This document shows, piece after piece, positions 33,131 to 59,362 of a stretch of 64,000 nt of DNA. Location of the stretch: NCBI GenBank assembly GCA_951406725.2, contig OX597815.1:213404001-213468000 (forward strand), read 5' to 3'. Origin of the DNA: Octopus vulgaris. Its lineage: Eukaryota. The notes beneath the pieces are model-generated. The model worked only from the letters and a program-made list of their open reading frames with translations. It did not search any database and was not told the origin of the DNA. Every line of letters begins with the position of its first letter. The first letter of the stretch is position 1. A program made the translations under genes and the position numbers.

Positions 33131-34111
33131 TAATATGAATATCATATGTATGTATGCATGTGAGGGTGCCCTACCTATTGTCACTGCATCCTTCTACGTG
33201 AGGGACGCTCTCATGTGAAACCAGCGGCTCCAAGCGATAACTTGTCAGCTTGCTTCGGCCGGTTACTGGATACTAACCACAGAGGCTCAGAGACTTGTAC
33301 AACTCGTGTTGTCCAAGCGTTTATTACTATAATCCAATGACGTACAGATGTCTCTCTATGGTGGACCTCATTTGTTATTCCATCAACTGAAAGTCTTTCG
33401 ACGATGGAAAGGTTACAACGTGTGCAGGCGTAACCAGCTGCAAGCGCACAGTAGGCGATAACTTTCGTCTATTACCTGTACTTCAAACTAAGCAGATCTA
33501 CAACGGACTGAATAGCCATTTGAGAGTTCATGGACGGAGAGTCAGAAATGGCATTGACGACAACGAAGTAGAAGAACATGACAATCGTCTGTCTGTCTGT
33601 TTATCTATTTCTCTCTCTCTCTCTCTCTCTCACTATATATATATATATATATATATATATATATTGATAGATGGATAGATAGATAGATGTGTGTGTTTAT
33701 ATGTATATAGACACACACATAGACATATAGACATATAGACACACACATCTATATATCTATCTATCTATCTATCTATCTATCTATCTATCTATCTATCTAT
33801 CTATCTATCTATCTATCTATCTATCTATCTATCTATCTATCTATATATATATATATATATATATATATATATATATATATATATATATAGATGTGTGTGT
33901 CTATATGTGTATGTATATATGGAGAGAGAGAAAGAGGAAGGAGAGAAAGAGAGGGAGTGTAATCTGTGTATCTTATTTAATGTGAATATATTATACGAAA
34001 GCCACAGCACTGCGGTATTGGACTTGAAGAAGCATCTCGTATAGACGTATTGTCCTAAAAGGCACAGAAGTATCAGTAGCAGATGAAAAACGTCCAGAGC
34101 GGTACTGGAAT

Positions 34112-34155
34112 TGCTAGATCTGGGATTTCTGCATATTTGCGTCTCATCAGTAGCA
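34112..34155 (-). ncRNA. Type I hammerhead ribozyme motif (atypical stem II)
   Basis: TGCTA-CTGATGA-GACGCAAATATGCA-GAAA-TCCCAGA-TC-TAGCA: stem I 5 bp, stem III ATC/GAT, AUC cleavage triplet; degenerate inverted copy at 34235-34278. Confidence 0.6.
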
Positions 34156-35808
34156 CGCATTCACTATCAGTGCACGATTAGACAAATTTCGTAACAAGTC
34201 ACTGGCGTTACATATAGCTAGCGGGCTGGATACCTGCTACCGATAACACACCAATACGCAGAAATCCCGGATATAGCAACTCCACAACTACTGCTAGACG
34301 CTTGGAAGGAAAAAAGTTCAAAGGTTACCGGTGGGACATACATACATACATACATACATACATACATACATACATACATACATACATACATACATACATA
34401 CATACATACATACATACATACGTACATACATACATACATACATACATACGTACATGCATACATACAAACATACATACATACATACATACATACATACATA
34501 CATACATACGTACATACAAACATACATACATACATACATACATACATACATACATTCATACATACGTACATACATACATACATACATACGTACGTACGAG
34601 TTTATATGTGTATGTATTATATAGTGTTAGTACAATAAAACAATAAACATTATGAACAACATGAGAAGAACAGTCATTGATAAATATGGTATTAGTTCCA
34701 CACACTCTTGCAGAACTGAGGCGATATTGAATAAATGAAGAACCTATTTGTCACTGTTCATACGAATATTTTATCATTCAACACTTTTGATTGGATTGTT
34801 CAGCTAATAGTGTTATGAAGATTGACTCATAGATTAGCTTTTGTTACACAACTGGATTCTGATCTCCTCTCCCAATTATAATTGTCAATTTGGCCGAGTG
34901 GGATTAGTTGAATATAATATCTTATTCAATACAAATATATAAAAGTACAATGTGAATCTCTCAAATTTCATGGATATTAAGTTATGAGATCTGATATATT
35001 GCAATACCAGACAAACCAGTCCTGAAATATTTTGAATTGTTGAAGTTATTATGATTGAGTTCCATAACGGATTGGGTATGTGGTGACAACATATTTTATC
35101 GTAACAAGTAAGTGTGTAGATTTAGAAAAAAAATTATATCTCATTTGGTGAGCAATAATAATTGTTTGGTGACAGTCGTCTAGCATTGCAATCATTGGCT
35201 CATTGCACTATGACAGAAAATGACTAAGGATTGTCTGTGGCGCCCAAGCAGAAAGAAAGAGAGATACTACCCAAAAGCTATTTTTGATCTTTTGGCTGTT
35301 TTTATAAAGAGCTAAGATGTTATTCGGTATTTTTTCCGGCTCTTTATATCCTGGTTTCAAATCCGGTCGAAGTCTGCTTTATCTTTCACCCTTTCGAATT
35401 TAATAAAACATTCAGCTACTTTTAGCTTCGTTCCTAAATCAGACACCAATTCAGAGCTATGATGTTATATATATATATATATAGAGAGAGAGAGAGAGAG
35501 AGATTTACTATGCACACACACAAGAAGTGATATATATATATACATTTATACATATGTACATAATACAAACTTATCTCTCTGTCTCTCTTTCTACACACAC
35601 ACATACATATATATATATATATATAGAGAGAGAGAGAGATAGTGATGCAGATAAACGTGATTATGATCGATATATAAATATACAAACATGTACACATATA
35701 AATATATATATAGTGAGAGGTGTATATAAATACAAAAACTAAATATACCCAGAAGATAAACCCATATACAGAAGTATATATATATATATATATATATAAT
35801 CATATACA

Positions 35809-35950
35809 TAATTTACATGATAAGGGCAGAAGAAAAATTCTAATGCCCTTATCTTGTAAATTATTTATAAATTTAACCTTTAAAGGTATTTTTTGATATG
35901 CTGGCCATTGATAAAATTTTTTTCCCGATTAAAATTTTATCCTACATTAG
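35809..35950. mobile_element. Foldback fragment of the 53383-53882 element family
   Basis: 20-bp inverted arms in 35809-35863; 35864-35950 is the reverse-complement homologue of ~53391-53475. Confidence 0.75.
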
Positions 35951-35970
35951 TTATATATAAATATATATAC

Positions 35971-36090
35971 TGATAAATAAATTTGCTTTTACGTAGAGTA
36001 TAAAAATACTAAGATGTGAGTGTATAGTTTGCACTCTCCCCCTTGTTTTCTGTATTTTTATACTCCATGTAAAAGCAAATTTATTTATCA
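35971..36090. repeat. Inverted repeat (39-bp arms), MITE/pLTR-like
   Basis: TGATAAATAAATTTGCTTTTACGTAGAGTATAAAAATAC pairs with GTATTTTTATACTCCATGTAAAAGCAAATTTATTTATCA. Confidence 0.85.
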
Positions 36091-57338: not shown

Positions 57339-57362
57339 TGTATATATATATATATATATATA

Positions 57363-57700
57363 TAGTAAACAAACAGGGTGTGTGTTGCACTATATGGCTG
57401 TATCAATGATTGAACAGACAGAACACAACAAGGAGAAAAAGTTAGACGAAAGCAGTGTAAACAGGAAACAAGACGAGAACTTAACAGTCGGGGAATGTAG
57501 ACAAGGACACGATACACGGAATATTCGCAGCTGAATTTGCCTCATCAGTCAATGACCAAGAAATCATCGTGGTTTCGCACTATTATCATTGAGACCACTC
57601 AAAGTTGGTGGTGCCAGTGCTGTTATTAAGCTACTGGGAAAAAAGCCAGCGAATGTATACTGAGAGAAACTTCATTGTCAACAATATTTCTTGAATATTT
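57363..57700 (-). mobile_element. PLE-type terminal fragment with degenerate hammerhead-like motifs
   Basis: 3' end runs into (TA)n; minus-strand CTGATGA-G-GCA...TGC-GAAT (57523-57548) and GCACT...AGTGC-GAAAC (57572-57620). Confidence 0.45.
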
Positions 57701-58367
57701 ATTGTGCGAACTGACTCTAACTCTTCCCACTTCTACTTTTTACTCTATCACTTTCTCTACTCTTACTCTCTCTTTCCACCCTTGCTTACCCCCCATGTAT
57801 CTTTCTCTTCCCTCTCTTTCCCTCTGTTTCTCCACTCCCACTGCTCTTTCCTCCCCTCTCTCTGTATCCCAGTCTTTTCTTCTCTATATACTTCCCCTGC
57901 CTTACCACGTGACCGGTGTCTAGTGAAGGCGGTGTCGTTCTTTTTCGCGCTACCTTTGGCCGGACTGGTCACATTGGTCTGTGATCCTGCTACGTCCTTT
58001 AGGACTTACCCCATCTCACCCTGCGCCACCGTACGTAGTTCGTTCACCCATACACATGTCCACACACACACACACACACACACACATTCCCACTCCGTCT
58101 ACGTACATATACTAACACACACACGCACCCAGTTACTGCCACACACACACACACATACCACTACCACCACACGCTACCATATACACACACGCAATCACAC
58201 CCACCCACGCATACACACATATACCAACCTTTCTTTACACTCTCCTGTGTTAGAAAGCACTTTCTCTTTGTTCATCTACTTCCGGTCATTCCAAAACGTG
58301 ACTCCATGTGAATTGTTGGCGATTTTTTCTTCCGTCTTTCTTTTCTTTTGGACTTTCCTCTGTCTCC

Positions 58368-58404
58368 TGTTTCTGAAGAAGAGCTTTGCTCGAAACGTAA
58401 AACA
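58368..58404 (+). ncRNA. Minimal type I hammerhead ribozyme (PLE type)
   Basis: TGTTT-CTGAAGA-A-GAGC-TTT-GCTC-GAAA-C-GTA-AAACA; stems I and II perfect, stem III reduced to palindromic ACGT. Confidence 0.82.
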
Positions 58405-59362
58405 CCCTTTCTTTCCTTCACTGAGCGTCTGCTAATACTTTGCATGTACCACGCCCTTGCGTTGCTTTATTTTTTTCTCCGTTTTTTATTAACTATGTTT
58501 ACATTCACACACACACACACACACACACACACACACACGTATTTGTGTTTCTGCGCGCTTTTTTATGTGCATGTACAATACTAGATGCATGATAAAAGTC
58601 TCTGAAAATGAAATTAACTTTCCTGGCTCGGCTACCAACAACTTCTGCTTAGGCATTTTTTTCATCTGCTGACTCCTCGGCTTTACGCATGATTTGATAA
58701 TTTTAAATATAACTATAATACTTAATCCAGGCACATACATACACACACACAGACACATAACAAACATAAATATAAATATATTTTTGGTTTCTTTTGATCA
58801 AATCTATTGTACTTCATTCTATTTGCATTAAGTAACCCAGTCACGTCAAGTATTTTAATTATAATCCTGTATTCTCTTCAAAAGGTGTTGAATAACAAAA
58901 GAATCCACACACTCACACACACACACACACACACACACACACACACACACAAAGCAAACAAACAAATTTTATTTACATAGTTTTACATAGATTTCAATTA
59001 CCTTCCAAATTTTTCAATTACATGCAACTCAAATTTCTTTCCAACACATGGTTTTTACTTAATCCTATATTATTCAATTTATCCTTTGCACGCACACACA
59101 CACACACACACACACACACACACACACACACACACACACACACACACACACACACACACACACACACTAACATGTATGTAAATAAGAACATATATACAGA
59201 GGAGAAGTGAAAACCTCTCGAAACTCTTCTGAAATGTGATCAAATAGTGTAGGGGTTCTGAACCGGGCGCAATATGATCCCTTGGGGGTCCATATAACAT
59301 CTTGCAGAGTTCACACAAATAAAATAATAAGCTGAGTTTGTAGTAGTATTTTGCTTGAGATG

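Follow-up and report, generated by a model that had tools for sequence, protein, structure and literature searches.

A predicted non-circularly permuted, pseudoknotted hammerhead in Penelope-like elements of Octopus vulgaris

The hammerheads carried by metazoan Penelope-like elements (PLEs) in their pseudo-long terminal repeats (pLTRs) have been described as minimal type I motifs with a stem II helix of 7-8 bp, in which a base may be bulged between positions 9 and 10.1 (Cervera and de la Pena 2014, PMC4209133). Among the PLE clades, Hydra has been recorded in octopus, where it bears type I hammerheads and targets (TA)n, while in Naiads a canonical hammerhead was not found, eight of them being flagged as 'half core' (labels 'HHR_core'/'HHR_half_core'), and the cephalopod Naiads were described as long inactive (Craig et al. 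2021, PMC8557442). Hammerheads of the Hydra type and of minimal pLTRs are thus already known. Non-circularly permuted hammerheads, of types SGC and CSG, have been described by Eckert et al. (2023, PMC10085705), who found the S-G-C order in metatranscriptomes only. The present report deals with six hammerhead-like loci, above all one at 57.5 kb, in a window of 64,000 nucleotides of the Octopus vulgaris genome (contig OX597815.1, positions 213,404,001 to 213,468,000), a genome of 2.8 Gb rich in microsatellites; coordinates are those of the window.

The 57.5 kb motif is best read as a non-circular, pseudoknotted hammerhead with stem II split after A9, belonging to a Naiad-type PLE RNA that is likely to cleave itself at GUC 57593, the other five loci being type I motifs of PLE ends. 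To this reading, which rests on comparative sequence analysis, a probability of about 0.75 is given. Along the strand the motif runs in the order D - S (cleavage site) - G (GAAA) - C' (CUGAUGA), and the window copy has the core bases CUGAUGA, GAAA and GUC. Its parts and the element that carries it are the following:

57542..57615, minus strand: permuted hammerhead motif, with a stem I of 8 bp, a stem III of 4 bp and a predicted cut between 57593 and 57592
57610..57614, minus strand: strand D, pairing with 57577-57581 and supplying the 10.x side of stem II, G10.1 included
57605..57608, minus strand: 5' strand of the interaction helix P0, with its partner at 57556-57559
57586..57598, minus strand: block S, with a stem III strand, the GUC triplet (C17 = 57593) and a stem I strand
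57569..57581, minus strand: block G, with the 11.x strand, GAAA (57576-57573) and the stem III partner strand
57542..57559, minus strand: block C', with the 3' strand of P0, the stem I partner strand and CUGAUGA (57548-57542)
57365..57670, minus strand: inverted pLTR and tail of the non-coding PLE-like family A1, adjoining (TA)n and carrying the permuted motif
57680..58045, plus strand: CT-rich 5' body of family A1

In the family majority, the left flank of GUC pairs with the bases after GAAA (stem III) and its right flank with the bases before CUGAnGA (stem I). The pairing of D with the 11.x strand comprises 4 bp in the window copy and 5 in the family majority, and P0 comprises 4 and 7 bp, respectively. 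Types I, II and III were considered for this motif and rejected, as the blocks stand in the order S-G-C, and not CGS, GSC or SCG, and no stem I fits. The type I label that a first-pass annotation had given to the whole group is sustained for five motifs, weak and decayed ones included, and fails at 57.5 kb, where GAAA lies 5' of CUGAUGA and no circular type fits; the search with a long stem II that it had suggested would miss this motif, the permutation being non-circular. The order D-S-G-C' also lies outside the six orders that assume an unbreakable block C. The motif is the only solid match to the permuted pattern in the window, shuffled windows giving 0.01 each. A weak match in S-G-C order at 3795-3845 (minus strand), beside a (CA)n run, may be a chance hit or a truncated member of another family.

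The piece at 57.5 kb is the inverted 5' pLTR of a non-coding element of 0.7-1 kb, whose body follows on the plus strand. This body matches 7 of the 24 other A1 loci fetched and none of 24 other loci of the 58.4 kb family, and the extent shared by A1 copies reaches at most about 480 nt upstream of GAAA. The region 57365-58500 is chimeric: the inverted pLTR and body of A1 meet the 3' end of a type I family at about 58045.

Copies of the motif were sought in the octopus's own genome with patterns that specify no pairing. A pattern requiring G after A9 gave 197 matches against 36 in a reversed control; in most families the strand after A9 contributed a single G-C pair, itself forced by this pattern. 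A stricter pattern with G forbidden at that place gave 2,695 matches against 25. From the first pattern, 70 loci fetched out of 100 listed provided 72 matches, of which 28 form both stems I and III, the shuffles giving 0.37 (maximum 3 in 300) and cross-family swaps 5.5%; many different stem sequences occur among them. That the matches arise by chance in a repeat-rich genome could be argued from the looser pattern, where about one fifth are background (36 of 197), but the excess of 2,695 over 25, the covariation across families and the occurrence of the same fold in two phyla leave this explanation close to negligible.

The split of stem II shows in the partner of the 11.x strand. Strand D lies 21-29 nt 5' of the cut and pairs with the 11.x strand, first by a G opposite C11.1, and the pairing then continues into P0, whose partner is the segment just before the stem I partner strand. 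Stems I and III were the sole criterion by which 58 members were chosen from 118 parsed copies, so that the choice was blind to the 5' helix. In 39 of them the 11.x strand makes 4 or more Watson-Crick pairs with the 5' flank (null 3.7, maximum 10 in 500 shuffles), and in none with the strand after A9. P0 of at least 5 bp, in the anchored register, is also present in 39 of the 58 (null 15.4, maximum 25). The 87 distinct sequences fall into 17 clusters, and 61 of them have the 5' helix; their triplets are GUC, GUA, AUC, GUU and AUA, all NUH, a rule that served as a filter.

On a blind MAFFT alignment of 16 rows (the window copy plus, from each of 15 clusters, the member with the best pairing; not included were another Naiad-type cluster and a probable chance hit), the four-helix structure pairs 84.2% of the cells, against 58.7 +/- 2.0 when shuffled and 29-46% when slid, and 14 of the 17 pairs change on both sides, percentages that are biased upward by the choice of best-paired rows and by the use of stems I and III as selection criteria. 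Stems I and III are paired in 95% and 90% (6 of 8 pairs changing on both sides) and P0 in 69% (4 of 4). Positions 10.1 and 11.1 form a G-C pair in 13 of the 16 rows, only with the strand from the 5' flank. The four helices covary across families, and stem II is formed with the 5' flank.

A simpler account would be an ordinary type-SGC ribozyme with a stem II of 1 bp, or rich in G-U pairs, made by the strand after A9, the 5' helix being accessory or inhibitory. Family A1 does have G after A9, and the largest family can form 4-5 pairs downstream, two of them G-U (19 of the 58). Against this, copies without G after A9 are more than ten times commoner than copies with it, and the downstream pairing equals its control, conventional stem II being paired in 40.0% of the alignment cells against 39.8% when shuffled; moreover, the Naiad versions of octopus, coral and jellyfish, treated below, have U or A after A9 and make 4-6 Watson-Crick pairs with the 5' flank. 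The conventional stem II after A9 was rejected on this pairing and on the absence of any member with 4 Watson-Crick pairs (0/58), and the account built on it is very unlikely.

A two-copy hammerhead has also to be weighed, in which C' of one pLTR pairs with D-S-G of the next in a tandem transcript, or two RNAs swap strands; the tandem version corresponds to a CSG form in which the entire element is looped out after A9. Metazoan PLE hammerheads have been reported to act as dimers (PMC4209133), tandem units of 787 and 836 nt exist (loci L175 and L244), and P0 connects the far ends of stems III and I by no more than 0-3 nt, a sterically tight fit for a single copy. The spacings between blocks, on the other hand, are tightly conserved over the 17 clusters, as expected for a local fold, and cleavage by single constructs is known for type-SGC ribozymes whose links are about as short (PMC10085705). 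We consider the two-copy form unlikely.

Two groups, E (3 copies) and G (4 copies), had an unclear fold and were not counted as families. In a three-copy family (L213, L214), GAAA stands before CUGAAGA and two helices are clear, the cleavage block being unclear.

The link with Naiads comes from inspecting by eye about 300 bases at the end of 44 of the 54 Naiad consensi in PMC8557442. The D-S-G-C' fold ends 7 of the 44 (two from octopus, three from Acropora, one from Morbakka and one from Clytia), a CSG fold with intact stem II is seen in 6 of the 8 nematode consensi, and three of the 'half core' entries resolve as permuted folds; the rest of the inspected consensi showed either different structures or none in the part displayed. 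In the versions from octopus, coral and jellyfish, as already mentioned, the 5' flank provides the pairing. The octopus version has 954 copies in its own genome against 0 in the control, with all helices kept. Furthermore, the Naiad-type motif follows a C-terminal fragment of reverse transcriptase (RT; RVT_1, E 2e-5) and, among 30 Naiad-like RT loci taken with 1.5 kb of flank, 11 have it downstream in the same orientation.

It is probable, with slightly less assurance than for the 57.5 kb motif itself, that Naiads carry non-circularly permuted hammerheads, as one pseudoknotted ring opened at different points: nematodes would have the CSG form, and molluscs and cnidarians a seventh topology, opened within the supposedly indivisible block formed by CUGAnGA and stem II. 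They would form the first such animal ribozyme family, with thousands of copies, recently amplified and active as single copies.

The element at 57.4-58.0 kb is non-coding and has no open reading frame (ORF) with the N-terminal GIY-YIG and C-terminal RT of Naiads. Its pLTR, tail, inverted or tandem copies and (TA)n insertion are as in Naiads, but these traits are common to other PLE clades and so not diagnostic. The chances that Naiads mobilise family A1 are about even. The ORFs upstream of the permuted motif reveal no shared coding partner among the listed part of 95 loci. A Neptune-like ORF in one locus (L224) was discarded as partner, lying about 1.8 kb upstream and outside the family's shared extent. 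An intact Neptune-type PLE of 753-782 aa, present in 4 of 6 loci fetched, was likewise set aside, as no permuted motif was seen by eye in the 750 nt after its stop. Its ORFs are near-identical and intact in four loci (L358:1791-4049, minus strand, L359, L360 and L361), a recently active family, and this PLE is a candidate for moving the young non-coding families in trans. One related non-coding family with the permuted motif is itself young (9 copies, mean identity 96.4%).

Other structures were noticed by eye at the 3' ends of Naiads (PMC8557442, File S5), HDV-like in the bivalves CGi, Sglo, Olur, Tgra and Pmar and twister-like in Movir-1, Mgal, Bpla, Mphi, Scon and Mmer, so that the Naiad 3' slot seems to swap ribozyme classes. 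In the spider Naiad_Ptep, seen likewise by eye, the 3' end has the blocks in the order S-G-C, GAAA being preceded by a local hairpin and CUGAAGA followed by an interaction helix, which may be another variant.

The ends of genomic copies were examined around the predicted cut. In a young subfamily, 16 of the 27 copies without C17 begin exactly at nucleotide 1.1, joined to a microsatellite, against 2 of 14 at a control position two bases upstream (p 7e-4). In a wider scan of 29 loci, picked by eye from 100 of 1,311 rows listed, 27 junctions are found on the 3' side of the cut, at a distance of 4-15 nt, and the other 2 within the 16 nt on its 5' side (p 4e-7, uniform model). Such a step is consistent with a template ending at the cut, from which a few bases are lost during joining.

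These data also bear on the idea that the fold is real but non-catalytic, a hammerhead-derived 3' recognition element for the RT or endonuclease. It would agree with the extension of most copies through the site and with the unrelated structures that occupy the same position in other Naiads; but all catalytic core bases and the NUH rule have been kept while the helices diverged between families, the replacing structures resemble, by eye, other self-cleaving classes, and 5' junctions are depleted upstream of the cut. A purely structural role is accordingly judged quite improbable.

Several observations, in addition to the selection bias of the alignment, weigh against a self-cleaving permuted hammerhead at 57.5 kb or against its attribution to Naiads. 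As to the fold, 19 of the 58 members could form a G-U-rich conventional stem II when G-U pairs are allowed, an unanchored search for P0 is not above chance (5.82 against 5.9 bp), and in one small family (L185, L188) stem II is short and conventional and the D helix is missing. P0 and stem II are limited to 4 bp each in the window copy, whose nested minimum-energy fold differs (z -0.6), as computed by a program that cannot draw pseudoknots. As to cleavage, most copies read through the predicted site, a sharp peak of 5' ends at the cut is not upheld by the wider scan, where 0 of the 29 loci start exactly there, several of those junctions lie at TA microhomology, which shapes their positions, and stalling of the RT at the knot would give the same junction picture. 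As to the attribution, family A1 shares the fold but no detected sequence with any Naiad ORF.

In the mechanism proposed for the permuted hammerhead, the hammerhead core in its usual gamma shape would be re-formed from the four strands, with the 5' flank providing the G that acts as G10.1. The bulged base that PLE hammerheads already have between 9 and 10.1 would account for the tolerance of a break in the backbone there. As all parts of the motif lie within about 75 nt, a single copy would cut on its own, with no need of the dimer on which the minimal type I hammerheads of PLEs depend. Tandem PLE transcripts would be cut once CUGAnGA, the last part made, is transcribed, and this cutting may set the 5' end of the template. 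After the cut, stem II, P0 and stem III would hold the two products together; re-ligation or circularisation would thereby be favoured, and the read-through of the site in most copies explained. Non-coding families such as A1 would be copied in trans by a coding PLE into microsatellites.

Returning to the window as a whole, CUGAnGA and GAAA are present at all six places where the first-pass annotation had seen hammerhead cores, and all six loci are real interspersed repeat families, with 323 to 5,049 first-look candidates each in the octopus genome. A scan with Rfam gave no hammerhead, only microsatellite-driven matches, among the 150 of 185 matches listed. With a type I descriptor that allows a long stem II, three loci were recovered (49.8, 53.7 and 58.4 kb), against 0.2-0.3 per locally shuffled window (60 shuffles, two block sizes; maximum 2 loci); the 54.6 kb copy fits the descriptor only with U16.1 relaxed. 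The features of the five type I families are these:

54390..57340, minus strand: Hydra-clade PLE, 5'-truncated and frameshifted, with RT, linker, endonuclease and pLTRs
56724-57065, minus strand: RT (YRDD) of this PLE
about 55200-55560, minus strand: CxCX5C linker and endonuclease of this PLE
about 57040-57335, plus strand: inverted pLTR and tail of this PLE; a 3' pLTR is also present
54502..54614, minus strand: type I hammerhead in the Hydra pLTR, with a stem II region of 86 nt and U16.1 mutated in this copy
49697..49925, no strand assigned: within (TA)n, an inverted pLTR fragment fused with the tail of a second Hydra-type family
49730-49815, minus strand: type I hammerhead of the 49.7 kb piece, with a stem II region of 59 nt
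53384..53885, minus strand: short PLE-like repeat inside (TA)n
about 53555-53679, minus strand: atypical type I hammerhead-like motif of the 53.6 kb repeat
33960..34190, minus strand: old repeat family, not associated with (TA)n
about 34110-34156, minus strand: decayed minimal type I hammerhead of the 34.1 kb family
58045..58500, plus strand: 3' end of a different, very abundant PLE-type family
58368-58404, plus strand: minimal type I hammerhead of the 58.4 kb family, with a bulged A after A9 and a palindromic stem III

The element at 54.4-57.3 kb has a C-terminal endonuclease, a CxCX5C linker and a CxxC before the conserved E, as in the Hydra clade, and its RT motifs resemble by eye those of Hydra-1_Obim; the nearest named homologues of the RT are Octopus proteins, the 5' truncation falls inside the RT, and a Pfam search did not recognise the Hydra fragments. 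On its sequence it is assigned to the Hydra clade as a degraded PLE, and the earlier view of a coding PLE with a hammerhead in its pLTR is confirmed. The window copy of this hammerhead has G at U16.1, where the family majority has U, and that majority carries a canonical type I hammerhead in the pLTR.

The short elements had been taken for solo pLTRs or retrozyme-like RNAs. They are indeed PLE ends or non-coding PLE derivatives, but the 49.7 kb piece is not an unrelated retrozyme: it is of Hydra type, a Hydra-type endonuclease being found upstream in 1 of 30 loci. Non-LTR retrozymes are built of two or more units in tandem, every unit with its own type I hammerhead, whereas the short elements of the window are single. 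At 58.4 kb the motif follows the textbook form of the minimal PLE hammerhead. Stem II is 3 bp long in the 53.6 kb family, which also carries one additional base at its cleavage site; part of the 3' end of this family occurs again at 35820-35950, adjoining (TA)n. In the 34.1 kb copy the first pair of stem II is broken, and most copies of the family have Y-A there. Core and proximal stems are intact under a strict pattern in 13/30 (49.7 kb), 2/25 (54.5 kb), 5/25 (58.4 kb), 6/25 (34.1 kb) and 4/25 (53.6 kb) copies, low fractions which indicate that most copies are decaying.

The proposal that the loci sit mostly in (TA)n applies to three families only. A run of (TA)4 or longer lies within 50 nt of the end of homology, which is not always the end of the element, in 20/30 (49.7 kb), 19/25 (53.6 kb) and 14/25 (57.5 kb) copies, with a background of 5-10%; in the other families the association is weak or absent (7/25 at 58.4 kb, 5/25 at 54.5 kb and 2/25 at 34.1 kb). 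Elsewhere in the window, 16938-18147 and 59240-59740 are presumably Tc1/mariner-like transposase remnants, a label given from their motifs.

If the permuted fold is catalytic as proposed, it would answer the stated puzzle of why Naiads lack hammerheads, and would move non-circular RNA permutations from rare environmental contigs to abundant animal transposons, whose copies put many natural variants and compensatory changes on hand. A topology beyond the six thought possible would also mean that the backbone link between A9 and 10.1 is dispensable. The permuted order explains why standard descriptors and Rfam miss the motif. In the literature covered, from which subscription journals are mostly absent, no permuted hammerhead in PLEs, other transposons or animal genomes and no split block C were found, and the available text of PMC10162972 and PMC13725137 describes no such variant.

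Among the described systems, type SGC (PMC10085705) shares with the 57.5 kb motif the S-G-C order, the short link between stems I and II, an interaction helix tying these two stems and an intact core. It differs in block C, which was assumed to be unbreakable, with at most 1-2 bases inserted after CUGAnGA; the 57.5 kb motif has this block split, with the 10.x strand placed first, so that 10.x is not within 2 nt of A9 and the base after A9 is free, and a strand of its interaction helix comes from the 5' flank. SGC, CSG and D-S-G-C' may be regarded as circular permutations of one pseudoknotted ring. The Naiads (PMC8557442) are alike in the 3' position of the motif in the pLTR, in (TA)n insertion and in tandem and inverted copies, but they are coding elements and the A1 family of the window is non-coding.

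The minimal PLE hammerheads (PMC4209133) have their counterparts at 58.4, 49.7, 54.5 and 34.1 kb in type I order, in the short or palindromic stem III and, in some, in the bulge between 9 and 10.1; the stem II regions of 59-86 nt at 49.7, 53.6 and 54.5 kb are longer than the helix described for them, and the topology at 57.5 kb is different. Hydra-1_Obim (PMC8557442) and the PLE of the window agree in the C-terminal endonuclease, CxCX5C, the CxxC before E, the YRDD of the RT, the type I hammerhead and the (TA)n targets, and the window element belongs to another family, with a long stem II, 5'-truncated and frameshifted. Finally, the non-LTR retrozymes (bioRxiv 10.64898/2026.07.22.740005) resemble the short elements in being non-coding, derived from PLEs and sometimes arranged as tandem hammerhead units, but they are defined with type I hammerheads, and the copies in the window are single.

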